Below, one piece after another: positions 1 through 10,430 of a stretch of 64,000 nt of DNA. The notes beneath the pieces are model-generated. The model worked only from the letters and a program-made list of their open reading frames with translations, was not told where the DNA came from and made no database searches. The stretch comes from Escherichia coli (GTDB taxonomy: Bacteria; Pseudomonadota; Gammaproteobacteria; Enterobacterales; Enterobacteriaceae). Both the position numbers and the translations under genes were made by a program. Where the stretch lies: the NCBI RefSeq assembly GCF_044324875.1, contig NZ_CP172185.1; one strand, 5' to 3'. Every line of letters starts with the position of its first letter. Position 1 is the stretch's first letter.

Positions 1-1483
1 TAATCCACCTTTCGGCGTGGACTGGAAAAAGATAGAAACCGACATCAACAACGAGCACAAACTCAAAGGTGCTGATGGTCGCTTTGGCCCCGGCCTGCCC
101 CGCGTCTCTGACGGTTCGTTGCTGTTTCTGCTGCACCTGATCAGCAAAATGCGCGATGCCAAAAGCGGTGGCGGGCGGATCGGCATCATTCTTAATGGTT
201 CCCCATTATTTACCGGCGGCGCGGGCAGCGGTGAAAGCGAGATCCGCCGCTACATTCTGGAAGCGGATTTGCTGGAAGGCATTATCGCCCTGCCCACCGA
301 CATGTTTTACAACACCGGTATCGCTACCTATGTTTGGGTGCTGTCCAACAAAAAAGCGCCAGAACGCAAAGGCAAAGTCCAGCTTATCGACGGCAGCAAC
401 CTGTGCGGCAAGATGCGTAAATCGCTGGGGTCAAAACGCAATATTCTCGGAGACGAGGATATTGGTTTAATCACCCGCACGTTTGGCGATTTCGAACCCG
501 TTGCCACCACTACGCTTGCGGCGTTAGGCCTGGAGAAAGCACCCGAACAAAAATCCAGCCGGGGACGCCAGCCCGCAACAACCAAAACCGAGGCGGCAAA
601 AACTTTTGCCAGCAAAGTCTTTCACAGCACCGAGTTTGGCTATCGTCGCATCACCGTTGAGCGCCCGTTACGCCTGTCGGCTCAGATAAGTGATGACGCC
701 ATTGCCACATTACGTTTTGCGCCGAAGCCGTTTAACGCTCCGATGGCGCAACTGTATGACGCCTTTGCTTTCCAGTGGCAGGACGGTCATTACGGCGACT
801 TAACAGCGGTAGAAAGTGAAGCCCGCGCCATTCTTAAAGCCGATTTTAGCGAGCTGAAAGAGAAGCAAATTAAAGATCTGCTCGACAGCAAATTATGGCT
901 GGCCCAGCGCGGGTTAATGGAAAAAGCGCGGCGTATTCAGGCGGCGATGGGTATGCAGGCGGGCGGCAAAGACACCGTTAGCAATGACTTTAATCAGTTC
1001 CAGTTGACGCTGAAAGAGGCGTTCAAAACCGCAGGCGTGAAGCTGGATGCGAAAGAGAACAAGCAGTTTATCGATGCTATCACCCGCAAAAACCCGGACG
1101 CCGAGCCGGTAGTCAGCAAGGTACTGAAAGAAGCGGCCCAACCGTTGTACGGCGCGTTTGAGTACCACGGAAAGGTTGTGGAGTTTGAGCCGGATGGCGA
1201 CCTGCGTGATAACGAGAATGTGCCGTTAAATCCGGCGGTATCTACCAGCGAGTTGATCGAGGGTTACTTCAAAGCAGAAGTATTGCCGCACGTCGCGGAT
1301 GCGTGGATTAACGCCGATAAGCGCGATGCGAAAGATGGGGATATCGGGATTGTGGGGTATGAAATTCCGTTTAATCGCCATTTTTATGTTTATCAACCGC
1401 CAAGGCCGCTGGAGGAGATTGATGCGGATCTGGATGCAGTAAGCGCTGAAATTATGAAACTGTTGCAGGAGGTACATTCCTGA
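1..1483 (+). CDS. hsdM: Type I restriction-modification N6-adenine DNA methyltransferase subunit (HsdM), 5' end truncated by window edge
   Basis: Reading frame is open from position 2; first codons encode NPPFG (gamma-class N6A-MTase motif IV). About 488 aa follow the motif, giving a long C-terminal extension compared with EcoKI-type HsdM. Stop TGA overlaps the ATG of the next gene by 1 nt. Confidence 0.85.
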
Positions 1484-2772
1484 TGGCAGGGTTAAATAAA
1501 TATCAGGCGTATCCGGAGTATAGGGATTCTGGGGTGGAGTGGATCGATGCAATCCCTTTTCATTGGGAAGTGCTACCAACATTTTCTCTATGTGAGGCAT
1601 CGACGAAGAAAAATATCGATGGAGCAGAAAACAATGTGCTCTCATTGAGTTATGGAAAAATTATTCCCAGAGATATAGAAACAAACTTCGGGCTTTTACC
1701 AGAGTCATTTAATACTTATCAAATCGTTGAAAATGGCGATATTATTTTAAGATTAACTGATCTACAAAATGATAAAAACAGTTTACGCGTAGGATTAGTC
1801 AAACAAAAAGGGATTATTACATCTGCATATTTAAAACTCAATTCACAAGGAAGTATGCTATCCGAATATTTATATCGCCTACTTCATTCATATGATACGA
1901 CTAAAGTTTTTTATGGCATGGGAGGAGGGCTGAGACAATCAATGAAATTTGAGGATTTCAGAAGATTGCCCTTACTGCTTCCATCGAAAAACGAACAGGG
2001 AAAAATAATTGATTTCCTCGACCACGAAACAGCAAAAATCGATAACCTGATCGAAAAACAACAACAACTTATTGAACTACTGAAAGAAAAACGTCAGGCA
2101 GTGATTAGCCATGCGGTGACCAAAGGGCTAAATCCTGATGTGCCGATGAAAGATTCTGGGGTTGAGTGGTTGGGTGAAGTTCCGAAACACTGGCACATAT
2201 GCAAGTTAAAATGGTTTGCTAATTTGAAAAGTGGTGATTTTATAACCAGCAATTCAATAGAACCAGAAGGAAACTATCCTGTTTATGGTGGAAATGGATT
2301 AAGAGGATATTATTCTCATTTTACACACAATGGTGAATATGTTCTTATTGGTAGACAAGGTGCTCTTTGCGGAAATATAAATTACGCAATTGGAAAATTT
2401 TGGGCTTCAGAACATGCTGTTGTTGTCACCCCAAACGAAAGAGCTGTTACAATATGGTTAGGAGAATTATTAAGAATAATGAACTTAAACCAATATTCAG
2501 TTTCTGCTGCACAACCGGGGCTTGCGGTTGAAAGAATTACTGATTTATATATTCCAATCCCACCATATCAAGAGCAAATAAATATCGGAACTTATATATC
2601 TAAATATATTTCTCTAGATAAAAAATTGATTGAGCATAGTACAGATAATATTGAACTCCTAAAAGAACGCCGCACCGCCCTTATCTCCGCCGCCGTCACC
2701 GGCAAAATCGACCTACGCAACTGGACCGCGCCCATCCCCGAAGCGGAAACACCCACGGAGGTCAGCGCATGA
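1483..2772 (+). CDS. hsdS: Type I R-M specificity subunit (HsdS), two target-recognition domains
   Basis: 429 aa; conserved central and C-terminal HsdS helices (KIDNLIEKQQQLIELLKEKRQAVISHAVTKG; RRTALISAAVTGKID); TRD motifs PVYGGNG...GALCGN; TRD-coding parts are AT-rich relative to the conserved parts; start overlaps hsdM stop, stop overlaps hsdR start (ATGA). Confidence 0.85.
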   Translation: MAGLNKYQAYPEYRDSGVEWIDAIPFHWEVLPTFSLCEASTKKNIDGAENNVLSLSYGKIIPRDIETNFGLLPESFNTYQIVENGDIILRLTDLQNDKNSLRVGLVKQKGIITSAYLKLNSQGSMLSEYLYRLLHSYDTTKVFYGMGGGLRQSMKFEDFRRLPLLLPSKNEQGKIIDFLDHETAKIDNLIEKQQQLIELLKEKRQAVISHAVTKGLNPDVPMKDSGVEWLGEVPKHWHICKLKWFANLKSGDFITSNSIEPEGNYPVYGGNGLRGYYSHFTHNGEYVLIGRQGALCGNINYAIGKFWASEHAVVVTPNERAVTIWLGELLRIMNLNQYSVSAAQPGLAVERITDLYIPIPPYQEQINIGTYISKYISLDKKLIEHSTDNIELLKERRTALISAAVTGKIDLRNWTAPIPEAETPTEVSA

Positions 2773-5700
2773 GCAACGACATAACAAAAGAGATCAACCT
2801 GCAAAACGACATCATCGCGCAGATGGCAGAAAAAGGCTGGATTGTCGGCAAAGGTGACGGCTACGACCGGGAACGAGCACTATACGCACAGGATACCTTA
2901 AACTTCGTACAAACCACCCAACCGCAAGAGTGGGAAAAATTCGCCCGCGTTTACCCCAACGACACCGAGCGCCATTTCCTCGACGCACTGGTCGCGCAGC
3001 TTAAAAAAGCCGACAGCAACGCCACCGATATTCAGTCGCGCACCAGGGGTACGCTCGGCGTACTTCGCCACGGCCTGAAAATCCGCAATGCCCGTTTTTC
3101 GCTGTGCCAGTTTAAACCGGAACATAATCTCAACCCGGAAACGCTGGCGCGCTATCAGCAGAATATCTGCCGCATTGTGCCGGAACTGATCTACAGCCCT
3201 TATGCCTCAAATAGCGTCTTTGCAGAAACGGGCGTGAAAGCCAAAAAATGGCGCATCGACCTGGTGCTGTTTATCAACGGCCTGCCAATTGCCACGCTGG
3301 AGCTGAAATCCGAATTCAAACAGGCGGTGCAGAACGCCATTGCGCAGTATAAAAAAACCCGCCTGCCGAAAGATCCCGCTACCAATAAGCCCGAACCGCT
3401 GCTGACCTTCAAGCGCGGGGCGCTGGTGCATTTTGCCGTCAGCCAGTATGACGTTTATATGACCACCAAACTCGTGGGTGACAGCACCTTCTTCCTGCCG
3501 TTTAACAAAGGCACCAAAGATGGTGGTGCAGGCAATGAGATCCCCGAAGATACCCACCGCTACGCCACCGATTATCTGTGGAATGAAGTACTGCTGCCGG
3601 ACAACTTATTAAAAATCCTCGCCAGTTTTGTCCATTTGCAGATTGAAGAAAAAGAGGAGTGGAACGGGCTGAAAGCGAAGAAAGAGAGCCTGATTTTCCC
3701 GCGCTATCACCAGTGGGATGTAGTCAACAAACTGCTGGAGGCCGCGACGGTCGAAGGCACCGGCCATAAATACCTGATCCAGCACAGCGCAGGTTCCGGA
3801 AAGTCGAACTCCATTGCCTGGACCGCCCACCAGCTTTCTCGTCTGTACGACGCAAACGGGGAAAAACAGTTTCATTCTGTTATCGTGGTGACGGACCGCA
3901 CAGTGCTGGACGACCAGCTTCAGGACGCCATCTGGCAGTTCGAGCACGCCGACGGCGTGGTCGGGCGCATCAATAATAGAGAGGGCGATGGCTCTAAATC
4001 GGAAAAGCTCGCCAACGCGCTGGAAAACTCGCAACCGATTATTATTGTCACCATCCAGACGTTCCCGTTCGTATTGAAAGCTATCGAAAACAGTGTCAGC
4101 CTGAAGCAGCGTAAATATGCGGTGATTGCCGACGAAGCACACTCCTCGCAGAGCGGTTCTACCGCCCGTCAGCTTAAAGAAGTGCTGATGAGCGAAGAGA
4201 TGGATGATGACGTGGTACTGTCGTCAGAAGATATTCTGGATGCGACCATCGCTGCACGGAAAGGCAGCAGTAACCTGAACTACTACGCCTTTACCGCCAC
4301 GCCAAAATCCAAAACCCTGGAACTCTTTGGTCGCTGTCCGCGTCCCGATGAGCCGGCCTCAAAAACCAATAAACCTGAGGCCTTCCACGTCTACTCCATG
4401 CGCCAGGCAATCGAAGAAGGCTTTATCCTCGACGTGCTGAAAAACTACACCAACTACAAAGTGGCGTATCAGTTGCTGCAAAAGCTGGAAGACAAGGACC
4501 GCGAAGTCGACAGCAAAAAGGCAAAGATAAAGCTCAACCAATGGGTGACACTGCACGACCACAACATCTCGCAGAAGGTGAAGGTGATTGTGGAGCACTT
4601 CCGCAAACATGTGATGCACCTGCTTGGCGGCCAGGCTAAAGCGATGGTGGTCACCAGTTCACGCAAAGCCGCTGTGCGCTACAAGCTGGCGTTTGATAAA
4701 TACATTAGCGAGAACAATTACCAGAAAATCAGCGCGATGGTGGCATTTTCCGGGGAAGTTGAATTCCAGGAAGGCGACCATAACAGCCTGGCATTGTTAA
4801 AGCAGAAATTTACTGAAATAAACATGAACCCCGGCCTGAAAGGGCGGGATATGCGCAAAGCCTTCGACAGCGATGATTATCAGGTGATGTTGGTCGCCAA
4901 TAAATTCCAGACCGGTTTTGACCAGCCAAAGCTGTGCGCGATGTACGTGGATAAACCCCTCGGTGGCGTCGAGTGCGTGCAGACACTCTCCCGCCTGAAC
5001 CGCACCTATCCGGGCAAAGCGGAATCGGGCACTTTTGTCCTCGATTTTTATAATGATCCGGACGAGATCCTCGGCGCATTCCAGCCCTATTTCCAGACGG
5101 CGGAACTGACCGATGTCAGCGATCCGCAGCAGGTATTCGATCTGTTTGAAAAACTGCGCGCCACGCAGATTTTTCAGTGGCATGAAGTCGAGCAGTTCTG
5201 CGAGGCGTACTTCATCAAAAATAAATCGAATGCGGCGATCAGTAATATCTGTAAACCGGCGGTCGAACGCTGGAAAAAGCGTTATCTGATGGCAATAGAC
5301 GCCTATTTGACCGCCAAAGAGATGTTCGAGCGCACTAAAAAAACGGGCGATACGGTGTTAATCACCAATGCGGAAAACAGTTTTAAAGCCTGTAAGCAGG
5401 AGAAAGATCGTCTGGAGATTTTCAAGAAAGATCTCGGCAGCTTTGTTCGCTTTTATGAGTTTATGTCGCAAATCGTTGAGTACGATGACAAGGATCTGGA
5501 AAAGCTAAGCCTGTTTGCCCGTCATCTGCGTCCGCTGCTGCATGAGCAACGTCTGGAAGAGGATGAAATTGATCTCAGTAATGTGGAGATGAGTCACTAT
5601 CGTTTATCGAAAATCCATGAGCAAGATTTACGCTTACAGGAAGAAACGTCTGACTATACGCTGGATGCAAGTAATGATATTGGTACGGCAAAAGCGAAAG

Positions 5701-6032
5701 ATAAAAAAGAGGAGTTTTTATCGCAGGTGCTTTCTCGGATGAATGAATTATTCATTAGCGACCATTTGACCGACAAAGATATGATCAGCAATGCTTTTGC
5801 GGTGTATAACAAAATAACTGAAAATGAAAATGTTATGACACAAATTAAAAACAATCCGCCAGAACAAGCGATTCTTGGTGATTTCCTCCAGGCAGTTGAT
5901 AATGCTGTAATGGACAGTAATGACGCTCGGCAAGAATTTATGTTGCAATATTTATCCGATCCAGTTCGGGCAAAGGGCTTTGCTTATCTGATGTTTGATA
6001 TGCTCACGGGGAAAATTGCTTTGCCAACATAA
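2769..6032 (+). CDS. hsdR: Type I R-M restriction subunit (HsdR), nuclease + SF2 helicase
   Basis: 1087 aa; N-terminal PD-(D/E)xK-like nuclease region (ATLELKSE), Walker A SAGSGKSN, DEAH box VIADEAHSSQ; ATGA overlap with hsdS. Confidence 0.9.
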   Translation: MSNDITKEINLQNDIIAQMAEKGWIVGKGDGYDRERALYAQDTLNFVQTTQPQEWEKFARVYPNDTERHFLDALVAQLKKADSNATDIQSRTRGTLGVLRHGLKIRNARFSLCQFKPEHNLNPETLARYQQNICRIVPELIYSPYASNSVFAETGVKAKKWRIDLVLFINGLPIATLELKSEFKQAVQNAIAQYKKTRLPKDPATNKPEPLLTFKRGALVHFAVSQYDVYMTTKLVGDSTFFLPFNKGTKDGGAGNEIPEDTHRYATDYLWNEVLLPDNLLKILASFVHLQIEEKEEWNGLKAKKESLIFPRYHQWDVVNKLLEAATVEGTGHKYLIQHSAGSGKSNSIAWTAHQLSRLYDANGEKQFHSVIVVTDRTVLDDQLQDAIWQFEHADGVVGRINNREGDGSKSEKLANALENSQPIIIVTIQTFPFVLKAIENSVSLKQRKYAVIADEAHSSQSGSTARQLKEVLMSEEMDDDVVLSSEDILDATIAARKGSSNLNYYAFTATPKSKTLELFGRCPRPDEPASKTNKPEAFHVYSMRQAIEEGFILDVLKNYTNYKVAYQLLQKLEDKDREVDSKKAKIKLNQWVTLHDHNISQKVKVIVEHFRKHVMHLLGGQAKAMVVTSSRKAAVRYKLAFDKYISENNYQKISAMVAFSGEVEFQEGDHNSLALLKQKFTEINMNPGLKGRDMRKAFDSDDYQVMLVANKFQTGFDQPKLCAMYVDKPLGGVECVQTLSRLNRTYPGKAESGTFVLDFYNDPDEILGAFQPYFQTAELTDVSDPQQVFDLFEKLRATQIFQWHEVEQFCEAYFIKNKSNAAISNICKPAVERWKKRYLMAIDAYLTAKEMFERTKKTGDTVLITNAENSFKACKQEKDRLEIFKKDLGSFVRFYEFMSQIVEYDDKDLEKLSLFARHLRPLLHEQRLEEDEIDLSNVEMSHYRLSKIHEQDLRLQEETSDYTLDASNDIGTAKAKDKKEEFLSQVLSRMNELFISDHLTDKDMISNAFAVYNKITENENVMTQIKNNPPEQAILGDFLQAVDNAVMDSNDARQEFMLQYLSDPVRAKGFAYLMFDMLTGKIALPT

Positions 6033-6044
6033 AACACGTTGATA

Positions 6045-6070
6045 GCCGGGGTCGCACTTTCTACCCCGGC
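6045..6070 (+). terminator. GC-rich hairpin downstream of hsdR (gccggggt-N10-accccggc)
   Basis: 8-bp perfect inverted repeat 13 nt after the hsdR stop; no strong T-run, so intrinsic-terminator function is uncertain. Confidence 0.35.
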
Positions 6071-6096
6071 CATATTGTTTACAATAAGGAATAGCT

Positions 6097-6810
6097 ATGC
6101 TGAAGATGATTAAAGATTTTAAATTCAAAAAATACATTAAAAAATTACGTGAAGAAGGTTTGTTTTTTTATGTTTCTTTCGGTTTTATATTTACATTGTT
6201 AATGGAAGTTGATAATCAATTACCATACTATCTTCAACAAGACTTCTTCTTTTATACACTTATAGGATTTATGCCAATCAATATATTCTTTGTTTTGATT
6301 TGCACAAATGTATTTTTCAATGCCGCCCACACACTTATTTCACCTTATAAAGGTCAAAGAGTTGGTGAGAAATTTCTCTCTGAACTTGATAAAAGAACGC
6401 AACAAATTGGCTTTATTATTTCATTTATATGTTTTGGCATGACATTGTTTTGTGCTCTGGCGTGGTTGCTGTTTTTTGAGATGAATAATGAAAGTTACTA
6501 CGCAAAATATACATTAGATTTTTTGGCTGTTTTTATCATTATGATTATGTTTTCTTCAGCAGTTAATCCAGTCATGAGAAGAATATTCCAAAAAATGAAG
6601 GGATCGGACTCACATGGAAATTCAAAAATAATTCTTATAATTATAATCATTGTGTTATTGCTATTATTGCCAATTGCGTACATTATCAATAAAAATAAAA
6701 CAATTGAAATCAATATTAAGAAAGAAACTTATCAGCAAATAAAAGAAAAAACAAAGATGAAACCAGAAGATTATATCAAAAAATTGATTGCTGATATTAA
6801 ATTCAACTAA
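6097..6810 (+). CDS. Hypothetical polytopic membrane protein, AT-rich (likely horizontally acquired)
   Basis: 237 aa ORF with AAGGA RBS 7-11 nt upstream of ATG; several long hydrophobic segments; lysine-rich termini; much lower GC than flanking genes. Confidence 0.55.
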   Translation: MLKMIKDFKFKKYIKKLREEGLFFYVSFGFIFTLLMEVDNQLPYYLQQDFFFYTLIGFMPINIFFVLICTNVFFNAAHTLISPYKGQRVGEKFLSELDKRTQQIGFIISFICFGMTLFCALAWLLFFEMNNESYYAKYTLDFLAVFIIMIMFSSAVNPVMRRIFQKMKGSDSHGNSKIILIIIIIVLLLLLPIAYIINKNKTIEINIKKETYQQIKEKTKMKPEDYIKKLIADIKFN

Positions 6811-6814
6811 TATC

Positions 6815-6848
6815 TATATGTACCCTGGTTTCTTCCTGGGTACATATA
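6815..6848. terminator. Hairpin between convergent genes (tatatgtaccc-N12-gggtacatata)
   Basis: 11-bp inverted repeat lying between the 3' ends of the membrane-protein ORF (+) and yjiS (-); possible bidirectional terminator. Confidence 0.35.
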
Positions 6849-6886
6849 AAAAGTTAATATCCTGATTTATTCTCAACATCCCCCCA

Positions 6887-7051
6887 TCACTCCACATCCT
6901 CCCTGCGTAACCCAATATCCCTCAACCGCTCATCACTCATCTGCTGTAACACCCGCCGGGCCTGCATTTGCCGCCGCCAACGCCTCACTGCCTGCCAGAG
7001 TTGCACAAGTCCAATAAACGGTGCTTTAGCTTTGTTTTCATGAAATTCCAT
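6887..7051 (-). CDS. yjiS: DUF1127 small protein (54 aa), not in supplied ORF track (<60 aa)
   Basis: Minus-strand translation MEFHENKAKAPFIGLVQLWQAVRRWRRQMQARRVLQQMSDERLRDIGLRREDVE; contains the DUF1127 hallmark LxxMSDxxLxDIGLxRxD; divergent from yjiR as in K-12. Confidence 0.7.
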   Translation of the reverse strand: MEFHENKAKAPFIGLVQLWQAVRRWRRQMQARRVLQQMSDERLRDIGLRREDVE

Positions 7052-7227
7052 CGACTGCCTCCTCATCTTTCAGAGGCTTCATCATCCGTCTTCTGGCAGT
7101 TCACAATACAGATGCAAATATTAGTTTTATTTAACATACAGACAGGTTAAAACAGCATCTGCATCCGGTTTTTTAGCCTCATCTGTACCGGTTTTTCTCT
7201 CTGTATGGTCCACATAAGGAATACAGC

Positions 7228-8640
7228 ATGACGCGTTATCAACATCTGGCGACTCTGCTTGCCGAGCGGATTGAGCAGGGGCTGTATCGTCACGGGGAGA
7301 AATTGCCGTCGGTGCGCAGCTTAAGTCAGGAGCACGGCGTCAGCATCAGCACCGTGCAGCAGGCGTATCAGACGCTGGAGACGATGAAGCTCATCACCCC
7401 ACAGCCGCGTTCGGGTTATTTTGTCGCACAACGTAAAGCCCAGCCGCCAGTGCCGCCGATGACGCGTCCGGTGCAGCGCCCGGTGGAAATTACCCAGTGG
7501 GATCAGGTGCTGGATATGCTGGAGGCGCATAGCGACAGTTCCATTGTTCCGTTAAGTAAAAGCACGCCGGATGTCGAAACGCCCAGCCTGAAACCGCTGT
7601 GGCGGGAGCTAAGCCGGGTGGTGCAGCATAATCTGCAAACCGTTCTCGGTTATGACTTGTTAGCCGGTCAGCGAGTGTTGCGAGAGCAGATTGCCCGCCT
7701 GATGCTCGACAGCGGCTCGGTGGTCACTGCCGATGACATCATCATCACCAGCGGCTGCCATAACTCGATGTCGCTGGCGTTAATGGCGGTGTGTAAACCG
7801 GGCGATATTGTCGCGGTCGAATCCCCCTGTTATTACGGTTCGATGCAGATGCTGCGTGGCATGGGCGTGAAAGTGATTGAAATCCCAACCGATCCAGAAA
7901 CAGGCATCAGCGTTGAAGCGCTGGAACTGGCGCTGGAACAGTGGCCGATTAAAGGCATCATTCTGGTGCCAAACTGTAATAATCCGCTGGGATTTATTAT
8001 GCCGGACGCGCGCAAACGGGCCGTTCTCTCTCTCGCTCAGCGTCATGATATTGTGATTTTTGAAGATGATGTCTACGGCGAACTGGCAACGGAGTATCCG
8101 CGCCCGCGGACCATTCATTCCTGGGATATCGACGGGCGAGTGCTGTTGTGCAGCTCATTCAGTAAAAGTATTGCACCTGGCCTGCGCGTGGGTTGGGTCG
8201 CACCGGGGCGTTATCACGATAAACTGATGCATATGAAATACGCCATCAGCAGCTTTAATGTACCGTCCACGCAAATGGCGGCGGCAACGTTTGTGCTGGA
8301 AGGTCACTATCATCGCCATATCCGGCGGATGCGGCAGATCTATCAGCGCAATTTGGCGCTTTATACCTGCTGGATACGGGAATATTTTCCCTGCGAAATC
8401 TGCATTACGCGCCCGAAAGGCGGATTTTTACTGTGGATCGAATTGCCTGAACAGGTCGATATGGTCTGCGTCGCACGGCAGCTATACCGCATGAAAATCC
8501 AGGTGGCGGCAGGCTCGATTTTCTCAGCTTCCGGCAAATACCGTAATTGTCTGCGCATCAACTGCGCTTTGCCGCTCAGCGAAACCTATCGCGAAGCACT
8601 GAAGCAAATTGGCGAAGCCGTGTATCGGGCAATGGAATGA
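7228..8640 (+). CDS. yjiR: MocR-family transcriptional regulator (GntR-type HTH fused to aminotransferase-like domain)
   Basis: 470 aa; N-terminal winged-HTH (LPSVRSLSQEHGVSISTVQQAY), C-terminal PLP-fold aminotransferase-like domain including SFSKSIAPGLRVGW. Confidence 0.9.
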   Translation: MTRYQHLATLLAERIEQGLYRHGEKLPSVRSLSQEHGVSISTVQQAYQTLETMKLITPQPRSGYFVAQRKAQPPVPPMTRPVQRPVEITQWDQVLDMLEAHSDSSIVPLSKSTPDVETPSLKPLWRELSRVVQHNLQTVLGYDLLAGQRVLREQIARLMLDSGSVVTADDIIITSGCHNSMSLALMAVCKPGDIVAVESPCYYGSMQMLRGMGVKVIEIPTDPETGISVEALELALEQWPIKGIILVPNCNNPLGFIMPDARKRAVLSLAQRHDIVIFEDDVYGELATEYPRPRTIHSWDIDGRVLLCSSFSKSIAPGLRVGWVAPGRYHDKLMHMKYAISSFNVPSTQMAAATFVLEGHYHRHIRRMRQIYQRNLALYTCWIREYFPCEICITRPKGGFLLWIELPEQVDMVCVARQLYRMKIQVAAGSIFSASGKYRNCLRINCALPLSETYREALKQIGEAVYRAME

Positions 8641-8757
8641 ATTCGAAATAGTGGCGAGCCCCCTGATTTCCTCTCACGAATAGCGTGTGACTTGTTTTAA
8701 CTTTGCAGGGTCATCTCCACGTTCCAGCATGGCTTAGGTAAAATGCGCTTCGTTCAT

Positions 8758-8857
8758 GCCGGATGCCATGTGAACGCCTTACCAGGTCTACAAAATTTTT
8801 AAAGTTCAATATATTTAATGGGTTATGTAGACCTGATAAGCGTAGCACATCAGGCAG
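8758..8857. repeat. REP/BIME-type palindromic units (two REP-like elements in opposite orientation)
   Basis: gccggatgccatgtgaacgccttaccaggtctac and gtagacctgataagcgtagcacatcaggca resemble the E. coli REP consensus. Confidence 0.55.
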
Positions 8858-8882
8858 TTTTGCGTTTGTCATCAGTCTCTGA

Positions 8883-9964
8883 TTAGTACTCGATCCATGG
8901 ATCGCGCTTGCTTTCAGGCAAGGGCTGATCTAATGCCTGCATTTGCTCTGCCGAAAGTCCGGTATATCGTTGTATCCATTCAGGATCCGCCCCATTCTGC
9001 AACAACAATCGGAGGAGGCTCCGTTCCCCTTCTACTTTCCCTTCTTTCCTCCCCCTCTCCCTTCCCAACAGCCATCCATCATTATGAATTCGCTCTGCAA
9101 TCGTCATTATTCGCTCCCTTTGTTGTGGCATTCGACTGGTTAGTTCGCTGATAAACTCTTTAAAACGCGCTTCATCGCCAGTCAGTAAAATGTAATTTAA
9201 CAGCGCAGTTATCTGGCTGTCATTAGTACACTCTGTAACCAGTAATACTACCAGTTGGTCGATAAGCCCCATCAGATCGCGCTGGCGAATATGCTTTTGG
9301 ATCAACTCCAACAGGGCGACTCTGCGGTGCTGCACAATCTCGTCGTCTGGCACGACAGTGATATCCACCAGCGGGAACGCGGCGGTATATACTCGTCATA
9401 CTTCAAGTTGCATGTGCTGCGACTGCGTTCATTCACCCCAGTCACTTACTTTTGTAAGCTCCTGGGGATTCACTCACTTGTCGCCTTCCTGCAACTTGAA
9501 TTATTTAGAGTATAAAGCTTCCGTGCGGTGGTCGGGTCAGCAAATTCGTCCAGCCAGCACAGGGACCAGGGGTAAGGACTACGGCTACCGTGATAAAACA
9601 GCATCGGGATGACCAGCGGTAGCGGCCGGCGTTTATCATGCTCGATATGGCGCTGCATCACCGCCATGGAATATCGCATCAGGCGAAAGGCCATATGGAT
9701 ATCCTCGCGGCTCTGATGTTCAATCACTACGTAAATATAACCATCACCTTCACGGGTCTTTACCGACCACAGAATATCAGAGTGTAGCGCCCGCAATTTT
9801 TCATCGACAAAGCTGGCGGATTCCAGTTTTAAGCTGTCGAGATCGCACAATTCACGTAAATCTATTGGTAAGTGGATCTCCATAAAATCCCGCGCGGTGT
9901 CAGGGTGGGTGAGAAAGGATTTAAATAATGCGTCATGCGGCGTACTGGTCGTGAAGTTTGTCAT
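8883..9964 (-). pseudogene. rpnD: Rpn-family (YhgA-like, PD-(D/E)xK) recombination-promoting nuclease gene split into two frames (yjiP + yjiQ fragments)
   Basis: N-terminal fragment 9470..9964 ([18 protein letters not shown]...) and C-terminal fragment 8883..9368 are in different frames separated by ~100 bp; same split arrangement as the K-12 yjiP/yjiQ pseudogene. Confidence 0.65.
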
Positions 9965-10430
9965 GGCGATCCGTCACCTGTTGATAAGATGGCCCGACTT
10001 TAGCGACTAACAAAACCATTCTCACCCGGCAATTTCCCGTTCCCCGAGGCGCTTTCCAGGCTATTTTTGTTCTTCTGCAAACGATACATTTTTCCGGAAA
10101 CAGGCTCGCGTTTTACATGTCCTGTACCCGGCAGATATTCCTCTTTCCACCGCGCTCTTTTGATTAACCGCAAATTTTAATTACACTTAAGGTGTATATT
10201 TTCTATGCAACCCATCAATTCAAGAGGTGTAATGTGCTGATGACTATTTGTAATCGTTATACATTCTGACCAGAACTCAGAAGGTATTTCTCTGTCTGTA
10301 TAAGCACAGGCAGTGTGGTTGATTACATGAAATTCAGTACATTTGTCCTTCTCGCCTGCCTTTCGTCATTACCGACGGTATTGAATTTCGTTTTCCCCAT
10401 TGGGGTTCTCCGGACAAGGAGTTGTTTGTT

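Follow-up and report, generated by a model that had tools for sequence, protein, structure and literature searches.

At the left end of the window, the 64,000-nucleotide stretch of the Escherichia coli contig NZ_CP172185.1 analysed here, we have found a complete and apparently intact Type I restriction-modification (R-M) system of a widespread family with a large HsdM, lying in the immigration control region and accompanied by a separate, rare membrane-protein gene. We give this reading a probability of about 0.85. The methylation, the restriction and the recognition sequence of the system are all predictions from sequence. The R-M family itself is widespread and horizontally mobile, with a fixed M-S-R gene order, an HsdM of ~780-790 aa and an HsdR of ~1085 aa.

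The three subunit genes lie on the plus strand. The 3' part of hsdM (2..1483, 493 codons plus stop) is open in frame 2 up to the stop at 1481-1483 and carries the NPPF motif at codons 1-4; its residues 1-167 align with profile positions 132-278 of Pfam N6_Mtase. Next come hsdS (1483..2772, 429 aa), with two target recognition domains (TRDs; Methylase_S with two stretches, PADLOC Specificity_I 379 bits), and hsdR (2769..6032, 1087 aa), the restriction/translocase subunit, with HSDR_N, SWI2_SNF2, ResIII, DEAD and T1R_D3-like domains. At the hsdM/hsdS junction, GGAGGTACATTCCTGATG, the TGA stop and the ATG start overlap by one base and a GGAGG stands upstream, and at the hsdS/hsdR junction, GGAGGTCAGCGCATGA, there is a 4-nt ATGA overlap. 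The 1-nt and 4-nt overlaps together with the GGAGG sites bear out the coupled hsdM-hsdS-hsdR order described in the earlier note.

These genes show what is expected of a Type I system: a three-gene M/S/R cluster with overlapping junctions, an N6-adenine methyltransferase domain with NPPF in HsdM, two recognition domains in HsdS, and an N-terminal PD-(D/E)xK nuclease followed by SF2 DEAD-box motor domains in HsdR. The HsdR motifs are D164...E178-L-K180, GSGKS at 342 and DEAH at 455, and its score against the TIGR00348 hsdR model is 183 bits, under the 284.55-bit cutoff. By what is known of the Type I family, HsdM, HsdS and HsdR would be produced from one operon by coupled translation; an M2S1 complex would methylate a bipartite target fixed by the two HsdS recognition domains, and R2M2S1 would translocate and cut unmodified DNA.

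Both hsdS and hsdR differ from their closest relatives. In a comparison with the HsdS of SK1144, a relative with the same system, the first ~165 residues have diverged while the remainder is nearly identical, that is, a variable N-terminal domain stands before a conserved remainder; TRD1 covers about 1543-1978 at 35% GC. Since the TRD1 allele differs from those of the nearest relatives, the HsdS here probably recognises another target than they do. Relatives of hsdR at 95-99% identity occur in 114 of 5426 complete E. coli genomes, with none above 96.3%, which makes the present hsdR a diverged allele.

As the promoter and the first 864 bases of hsdM are outside the window, the intactness of this gene in the source genome is assumed from its relatives. 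In the nearest complete ones HsdM is 781 aa long with NPPF at residues 290-293, in agreement with the earlier observation that 488 residues follow an NPPF placed at the very start of the window. A full-length relative shows HsdM_N at 9-143 (7e-27) and N6_Mtase at 155-455 (7e-58), and a single PADLOC model, MTase_I PDLC03029, spans HsdM residues 2-780 with 932 bits. This size had been taken as an oddity, and here the view has to be given up. HsdM proteins of 780-797 aa with 81-85% identity are found across Enterobacterales and beyond, in Salmonella salamae, Citrobacter, Serratia, Yersinia, Klebsiella, Xenorhabdus, Pantoea, Enterobacter, Cronobacter and Vibrio, so the length is a fixed, common family feature. 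The extension searched alone has more than 5000 homologues, the more distant ones in Acinetobacter, Photobacterium and Desulfuromonadaceae. The earlier note had itself named two findings that would speak against it, the first being that such an extension is common in a known family; the large HsdM is indeed common in a very large family.

The extra ~280 aa of HsdM are a family-wide insertion, made up of a disordered linker and a well-folded domain of ~240 aa, which follows the methyltransferase domain and precedes the usual C-terminal tail. The linker (482..631, plus strand) is a predicted low-complexity segment directly after the catalytic domain, where residues 1-50 of the AlphaFold2 (AF2) model have pLDDT values of 43-58 and Pfam gives no match. 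The inserted domain (632..1351, plus strand) consists of strands, a helical bundle and a beta sheet. The canonical tail (1352..1480, plus strand), a motif and a terminal helix with an invariant block G289-Y302 and a model helix at 310-332, is presumed to be the HsdS-binding element. Because the last ~45 residues resemble an ordinary HsdM tail, the extra part should be considered as an insertion, and a simple C-terminal add-on is rejected. We infer that this tail is equivalent to that of the 539-aa HsdM of E. coli EC958 (DYVLTPGRYV plus helix), which has the same position.

The inserted domain might add an activity beyond those of the classical Type I enzymes and so make the family a mechanistic variant; an extra DNA contact, oligomerisation, the sensing of anti-restriction proteins or a regulatory switch are candidate roles. 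Conservation is strong throughout the domain, where many Arg, Lys, Asp, Glu, Trp and Tyr residues are invariant, and this implies a function. In addition, AF2 folds the domain confidently, and it matches no Pfam family and has no structural relative among solved structures; a sequence search of the extension against the PDB returned a chance TPR match only. Even so, we regard a new activity, in any of these roles, as unlikely.

To which Type I family does the system belong? Direct sequence comparison separates it from types IB and ID, and the weak matches to solved chains set it apart from IA and IC. This agrees with the earlier proposal that a family other than the K-12 EcoKI one occupies the variable locus (22-27% identity to the IB- and ID-like systems, weak EcoKI and EcoR124 matches). 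For type IA (EcoKI), the M chain matches only with E = 3e-11 over the catalytic core, and the order here is M-S-R. For type IB (EcoAI), the identities to the EcoAI-family system of CFT073 are 26% (M) and 22% (R). EcoKI and this CFT073 system are allelic occupants of the same region with the same three-subunit logic, but they have the order R-M-S and shorter HsdM proteins (529 aa in EcoKI, 489 aa in CFT073). The type IC system EcoR124I has the gene order M-S-R. Its solved holoenzyme (e.g. 7bst) contains the closest solved HsdR (~1e-11 over 65 residues) and gives a clear HsdM match with E = 2.4e-25, over the catalytic domain only, whereas its HsdM has 520 aa and lacks the insertion.

Type ID (StySBLI) was compared through the M-S-R system of EC958 (E. 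coli ST131), which shows identities of 27% (M), 24% (R) and about 20% (S). The two systems share the chromosomal region, the M-S-R order and an HsdR of 1087 aa, but HsdM is 539 aa in EC958 and 781 aa here, and EC958 has symE and no membrane gene. In EC958 a BrnA/BrnT pair adjoins yjiA, while in SK1144 BrnA alone is annotated. The EC958 system should be EcoMII, as inferred from gene order and not from locus tags; the R subunit of EcoMII is 92% identical to that of StySBLI (PMC4659465). No R-M genes were found near 76 kb, where EC958_0076-0078 had been placed, and the M-S-R system lies in the immigration control region instead. The direct EC958 comparison also rules out an assignment to type ID by association, for which one could cite a 2025 review that gives type ID and GmrSD equal frequencies in the immigration control region, 12% each. 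Nor is the M-S-R order unusual: EC958 shows it at this very locus, and an operon of the form hsdM-hsdS-hsdR is described as 'typical' in Forde 2015 (PMC4659465).

The remaining candidate is type IE, whose prototype is KpnBI of Klebsiella pneumoniae according to the passages of PMC3874165 and PMC2481252 that cite Chin et al. 2004. The present family may possibly be type IE. KpnBI reportedly has an unusually long hsdM, a one-base hsdM/hsdS overlap and 25-33% identity to types IA-ID, and the system here agrees with it in these three points. Moreover, K. pneumoniae commonly carries close relatives of the system, with an HsdM of 786 aa that is 82% identical and an HsdR at 65-93% identity per 100-column alignment block. 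On the other hand, hsdM is 2361 bp in these Klebsiella relatives and reportedly 2631 bp in KpnBI, and none of the Klebsiella cluster members bears the name KpnBI. In a K. pneumoniae member the order and overlaps are the same as here and McrBC follows; the same order and overlaps also occur on Shewanella and Vibrio plasmids. Another Vibrio member, beside a Zorya-like cluster, shows only hsdM and the start of hsdS before its contig ends inside hsdS, and is thus uninformative on the presence of the membrane gene.

In relatives the genes run btsT-yjiX-yjiA-BrnA-Fic-GmrSD-hsdMSR-membrane gene-yjiS-yjiR/rpn-yjiN, which matches the immigration control region as described in PMC12707154, a 2025 survey that gives only types IA, IB and ID as the Type I families of this region. 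The variable segment is the one between yjiA and yjiS, and yjiS (6887..7066, minus strand; DUF1127 3e-12, annotated yjiS in relatives) is a conserved flank that marks its right edge. In the window, tblastn found no match for GmrSD, non-K-12 mrr-like or McrBC probes, and Rfam matched no RNA family on 1-12000. We take K-12 to have the order hsdR-hsdM-hsdS, with yjiT-yjiV-mcrCB-symE between yjiS and the hsd genes. That these K-12 genes are missing here, as had been claimed, stands for symE, with no tblastn match anywhere in the window, and for yjiT and yjiV as far as the ORF content of 1-7228 goes.

Between hsdR and yjiS lies the membrane-protein gene (6097..6810, plus strand, 237 aa), which starts 64 nt past hsdR. 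The description of an AT-rich membrane ORF with a good ribosome-binding site proved right: the gene has 27% GC, encodes hydrophobic stretches, is preceded by AAGGAATAGCTATG and has its own ribosome-binding site. Hydropathy gives four clear hydrophobic stretches, and sequence and model together add a fifth, weaker one near residues 21-38. The AF2 model is all-helical with a pLDDT of 72. Its dN/dS values of 0.12-0.29, from pairs with dS up to about 2, indicate purifying selection on the gene. Pfam yields sub-cutoff matches only (DUF898, MscS_TM, Cation_ATPase_C), typical of hydrophobic sequence, and Foldseek with the model finds generic helical matches only, with E above 1.

Overall, the protein has about five membrane helices and a ribbon-helix-helix-like (RHH-like) tail. 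This conserved C-terminal tail (6691..6807, plus strand), TIEINIKKETYQQIKEKTKMKPEDYIKKLI, is a strand-helix-turn-helix of ~35 residues that resembles CopG/Arc/NikA-like proteins; it is the best-conserved segment of the alignment and has the highest pLDDT of the model, with helices at 209-219 and 223-233. The tail of a Vibrio-type relative has sub-threshold matches to five RHH-type Pfam families, among them NikA-like 6e-5, RHH_7 0.002 and RHH_1 0.003 (17.9 bits, cutoff 20.5); for the E. coli tail itself, Pfam finds no RHH-type match. With five helices, the positive-inside count would make the tail periplasmic and so exclude DNA binding. To our knowledge, a fusion of an RHH protein with a polytopic membrane domain has not been described.

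Two hairpins flank the gene. A GC-rich one without a T tract (6045..6070, plus strand; -16.1 kcal/mol, z-score -2.5) stands just past the hsdR stop and was not called as an intrinsic terminator. The other (6815..6848) is strong, at -18.8 kcal/mol with a z-score of -5.5 and 0 of 200 shuffles folding as well, and is located between the convergent membrane gene and yjiS, where it is likely to act as a bidirectional transcription stop. A consensus terminator scan of 5900-7300 called none, though both hairpins fold well.

The second finding that the earlier note had named against itself, a widespread housekeeping gene, does not apply to the membrane protein. Searches of 5.8 billion and 1.84 billion proteins gave 8 clusters and 12 representatives of its family, respectively, and 100,044 species genomes contained 3 loci; in E. 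coli the gene is present in 114 of 5426 genomes. We consider it a real, separate, rare and fast-evolving resident of the yjiS/yjiN side of the locus that is not part of the R-M machine.

One could argue that this gene serves defence or exclusion independently, for example by superinfection exclusion or membrane-depolarising abortive infection. Five contexts of its relatives lie in the immigration control region. The most distant relative (E = 4.7e-4) belongs to a Vibrio-type island that also contains VspR, an ImmA/IrrE-HTH pair and a Multi_ubiq-ThiF-BubE cluster. Like many defence genes, it is also AT-rich, fast-evolving and narrowly distributed. Against this, PADLOC matches neither the E. coli protein nor two distant relatives, PHROG gives nothing credible (E about 0.01 only), and relatives at 24-26% identity are found among metabolic and transport genes. 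Since the argument is one of guilt by association, and the immigration control region holds non-defence cargo as well (PMC12707154), a defence role of this kind appears doubtful.

Taking together the two separate readings, (a) that the HsdM domain has an extra activity (a second DNA contact, the sensing of anti-restriction proteins or the control of restriction alleviation) and (b) that the rare five-helix protein with its RHH-like tail travels with the immigration control region as a new, self-contained factor for defence or exclusion, we hold them quite unlikely under one joint estimate.

It is very unlikely that the membrane protein is instead a fourth component or accessory of the R-M system (an anchor, a regulator or an abortive-infection effector coupled to HsdR), which would make the locus a four-gene defence system. 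The gene follows hsdR on the same strand at a short distance with its own ribosome-binding site, the numbers of E. coli genomes with the gene and with a 95-99% identical hsdR are equal (114 and 114), and the same arrangement recurs in a contig whose membrane protein bears an E. fergusonii name. However, relatives occur after symE beside a type IA-like system, beside mrr, in S. enterica diarizonae in an immigration control region without any R-M, and in Enterobacter in a non-defence setting; as they lie beside other Type I families or without R-M, the protein is not an R-M accessory, though within E. coli a functional link keeps a slight probability. Likewise, in the K. pneumoniae locus where an R-M system of the same family precedes McrBC, tblastn found no relative of the membrane protein, so the gene is not a regular partner of this family. 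The first hairpin stands between hsdR and the membrane gene, and the GC contents, 27% for this gene and 50% for hsdR, suggest a separate origin.

Finally, the idea that the 237-codon ORF is no gene, just a chance frame or a decayed remnant in an AT-rich spacer, could point to the lack of a Pfam match above cutoff, the extreme AT content and the bare annotation 'hypothetical protein', yet it is effectively refuted by the chance of about 2e-9 for so long an open frame at such composition, by the low dN/dS, by an identical ORF length in 114 genomes and by an architecture and tail motif kept down to about 21-29% identity.

For annotation, the locus calls for no special flag: a well-described variable region carries a standard Type I R-M cassette, and neither the HsdM domain nor the membrane family alters the present reading of this region. 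The membrane proteins form a tiny, AT-rich and seemingly undescribed family, which several enteric genera carry in their immigration control region, often right after symE. The HsdM insertion is a large domain without a Pfam family or solved structure in Type I methylases of Enterobacterales; the extension also has relatives in bacteria further removed. The domain bears on whether the EcoKI/EcoR124 picture covers these enzymes. If the domain does have an extra activity, a very widespread Type I family would differ in mechanism from the EcoKI and EcoR124 paradigms.

In the six-frame ORF list, the left end of the window holds three long ORFs on one strand, with a short AT-rich ORF after them. 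The first is open in frame 2 from base 2 to a stop codon at 1481–1483, begins with the NPPF motif, and is recognised by its N6_Mtase domain (Pfam) as the 3′ part of hsdM. It is followed by hsdS (1483–2772, 429 aa), with two stretches of Methylase_S, and hsdR (2769–6032, 1087 aa), which has HSDR_N, SWI2_SNF2, ResIII, DEAD and T1R_D3-like domains and the ELK, GSGKS and DEAH motifs expected in an HsdR. The AT-rich ORF (6097–6810, 237 aa) encodes a membrane protein, and beyond it yjiS (6887–7066; 59 aa, DUF1127) and yjiR (7228–8640) lie on the opposite strand to the hsd ORFs. The hsdM/hsdS junction is GGAGG-N9-TGATG with a 1-nt overlap, and the hsdS/hsdR junction is GGAGG-N7-ATGA with a 4-nt overlap; given these sites and overlaps, translational coupling of the three genes is plausible. 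Overall, the ORF list, the Pfam domains and the junctions confirm the layout that the earlier note had described, including the membrane ORF downstream.

The M-S-R order, which had been set against the hsdR-hsdM-hsdS of K-12, is not unusual. EC958, an E. coli ST131 strain, has hsdM (539 aa)-hsdS-hsdR (1087 aa)-symE-yjiS at the same locus, and Forde et al. (PMC4659465) term its hsdM-hsdS-hsdR operon 'typical'. They report 92% identity between the R subunit of EC958 and StySBLI, the prototype of type ID. We have compared the subunits of the window directly with this type ID-like system (HsdM 27%, HsdR 24% and HsdS ~20% identity) and with the type IB system of CFT073 (HsdM 26%, HsdR 22%). Since the M and R identities are as low as 22–27%, both type IB and type ID membership are rejected. 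Solved type IA and IC subunits also match the window system weakly: the M chain of EcoKI (type IA) matches the window-type HsdM at E = 3e-11, no match of HsdR to the solved EcoKI chains is seen at E <= 0.001, and the EcoR124 (type IC) chains give E = 2e-25 for HsdM and 1e-11 for HsdR. The weak match to EcoKI bears out the proposal that a Type I family different from that of K-12 occupies this variable locus. KpnBI, the type IE prototype, is said to have an unusually long hsdM, overlapped by hsdS by one base, and reportedly shares 25–33% identity with types IA–ID. The window system fits these traits in its long hsdM, its one-base hsdM/hsdS overlap and its low identity to types IA–ID, and may be a member of type IE.

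Close relatives of the window system are common in Klebsiella pneumoniae. There the genes of the M(786)-S-R(1082) cassette overlap as they do in the window, and the cassette stands outside the immigration control region, with McrBC after it. Per 100-column alignment block, the K. pneumoniae HsdR is 65–93% identical to that of the window. The C-terminal residues are the least conserved (65–76%); the matching last ~900 bases of hsdR (5130–6032) fall to 42% GC, where hsdR as a whole has 50%, and residues 1005–1082 give a weak PADLOC match to the candidate family PDC-S15 (E = 1e-6). Relatives of the family are also found on Shewanella and Vibrio plasmids. On one Vibrio contig, hsdM adjoins a Zorya-like cluster, and the contig ends inside hsdS, so that no hsdR is seen on it. 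In this contig (L019, 1–8623), the long-HsdM family stands back-to-back with the cluster (ZorA-like, OmpA-like, EH_Signature and SNF2 helicase) and a McrB-like AAA protein.

HsdM had been called unusually large. In the full-length protein, Pfam assigns HsdM_N to residues 9–143 and N6_Mtase to 155–455, and no Pfam family to residues ~456–781. This last region alone has more than 5000 homologues, including those of Acinetobacter, Photobacterium and Desulfuromonadaceae, and the whole HsdM as query finds proteins of 780–797 aa with 81–85% identity across Enterobacterales and in Vibrio. In addition, a single PADLOC Type I methylase model spans residues 2–780 with 932 bits, and several other such models are 700–1000 positions long. 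The size is therefore a family trait and large HsdMs are common; a common family feature of this kind is the first of two findings that the earlier note had named as refuting its proposal. The last 333 residues were modelled with AlphaFold from 54 sequences (mean pLDDT 84). The model begins with a disordered linker of ~50 residues, continues with a confidently predicted domain that combines strands, a helical bundle and a sheet (pLDDT >90 for most of residues 51–290), and ends with an invariant block and a terminal helix. Since this last part is placed as the ordinary tail of shorter HsdMs, we infer that the extra length is an insertion ahead of the usual tail, and not a C-terminal add-on.

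The R-M locus is the immigration control region, which stretches from yjiA to yjiN and is described in a 2025 EcoSal review (PMC12707154) as a defence island. Found in it are Type I systems from several families, together with Type IV enzymes and toxin-antitoxin pairs. E. coli chromosomes match window 1–7300, and the order in the close relative SK1144 is btsT, yjiX, yjiA, BrnA, Fic, GmrSD, hsdM (781 aa), hsdS, hsdR, hypothetical protein, yjiS, yjiR (pseudogene), rpn and yjiN. The same core is found in a contig whose membrane protein bears an E. fergusonii name. In the closest complete relative (L001, 3535–6853), BrnA, a Fic-family protein and a 699-aa GmrSD-type enzyme on the opposite strand precede the cassette, a part outside the window. 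Within the window, symE was not found, and the GmrSD, non-K-12 mrr-like and McrBC protein probes gave no match. yjiR is intact in the window and truncated in SK1144. Beside it, the Rpn-family (Transposase_31-like) gene, single and of 306–318 aa in relatives, appears to be split into two minus-strand ORFs (8883–9368 and 9470–9964; 161 and 164 aa), and is possibly a pseudogene.

Against the SK1144 allele, HsdS is diverged over its first ~165 residues and nearly identical over the remainder. This is a classic exchange of the first recognition domain, and it explains why the DNA match between window 1–7300 and E. coli chromosomes has a gap; the recognition domains of the cassette form a new combination. 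Of 5426 complete E. coli genomes, 114 have the hsdR allele at 95–99% identity and two further ones a ~79% copy. None of them goes above 96.3% for hsdR, so the allele of the window is a diverged one. The locus looks either mosaic or like a diverged allele not yet present in complete genomes. One genome matches the adjacent membrane-gene stretch at 98.5%, against the hsdR maximum of 96.3%, and 26 records show at least 99% for some part of the 1–7300 query.

The membrane ORF has 27% GC, and the chance of so long an open frame at that composition is ~2e-9. Its dN/dS values, 0.25–0.29 within Escherichia and 0.12–0.13 among more distant relatives, indicate purifying selection. It is a real gene. As the earlier note had supposed, it is not a widespread housekeeping gene: its protein forms 8 clusters in 5.8 billion proteins and is found at 3 loci among 100,044 species genomes. 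There are 12 representatives in 1.84 billion proteins. Pfam gave nothing above cutoff, PADLOC gave no match, and PHROG none better than E ~0.01. The AlphaFold model is all-helical (pLDDT 72), and gave no useful Foldseek match.

The protein has a Lys-rich N-terminus, four clear hydrophobic stretches and a weaker fifth near residues 21–38, and ends in a conserved tail, TIEINIKKETYQQIKEKTKMKPEDYIKKLI. This tail resembles a ribbon-helix-helix motif. In the most distant relative it gives sub-threshold matches to NikA-like, RHH_7, RHH_1, FitA-like and CopG_antitoxin, and the E. coli tail matches none of the RHH-type families. Five helices and the positive-inside rule would place the tail in the periplasm, in conflict with DNA binding.

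The membrane gene is present in 114 E. coli genomes, the same count as that of the 95–99% identical hsdR. Its relatives have varied neighbours. A 41% identical one lies between the mrr 3′ end and an aldehyde dehydrogenase gene, and those of 31% and 42% identity follow symE downstream of a type IA-like hsdR-hsdM-hsdS. The 33% relative of S. enterica subsp. diarizonae stands in yjiA-AraC-LysE-symE-[homolog]-aldDH-rpn-mdtM-yjiN, a stretch that lacks an R-M system. Relatives of 24–26% come after a GFA-family gene and are surrounded by genes for transport and metabolism. The most distant relative (25%, E = 4.7e-4) lies in a Vibrio-type island that carries VspR, ImmA/IrrE-HTH and a Multi_ubiq-ThiF-BubE cluster. 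This island (L013–L015, ~1400–12000), where ThiF is the E1, also holds several unannotated genes and an HD-domain protein. Beside the same R-M family in Klebsiella, no relative of the membrane gene is found nearby. Considering the varied neighbours and this absence, the membrane gene is a resident of the yjiS/yjiN side of the region rather than a partner of the window's R-M family. Association is all that points to a possible role in defence. At three other enterobacterial loci (L009, 7597–8672; L010, 708–1758; L021, 7520–8691), symE is immediately followed, on its own strand, by a relative, with a gap of ~70 nt at the two loci that have called genes; this suggests that symE and the membrane gene form a conserved pair there.

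Overall, the locus is an ordinary and probably functional Type I R-M cassette, of a widespread long-HsdM family in a well-known variable region, and beside it is an uncharacterised small membrane-protein gene. The unmodelled insertion domain of HsdM and the rare membrane-protein family are the items that might repay work.
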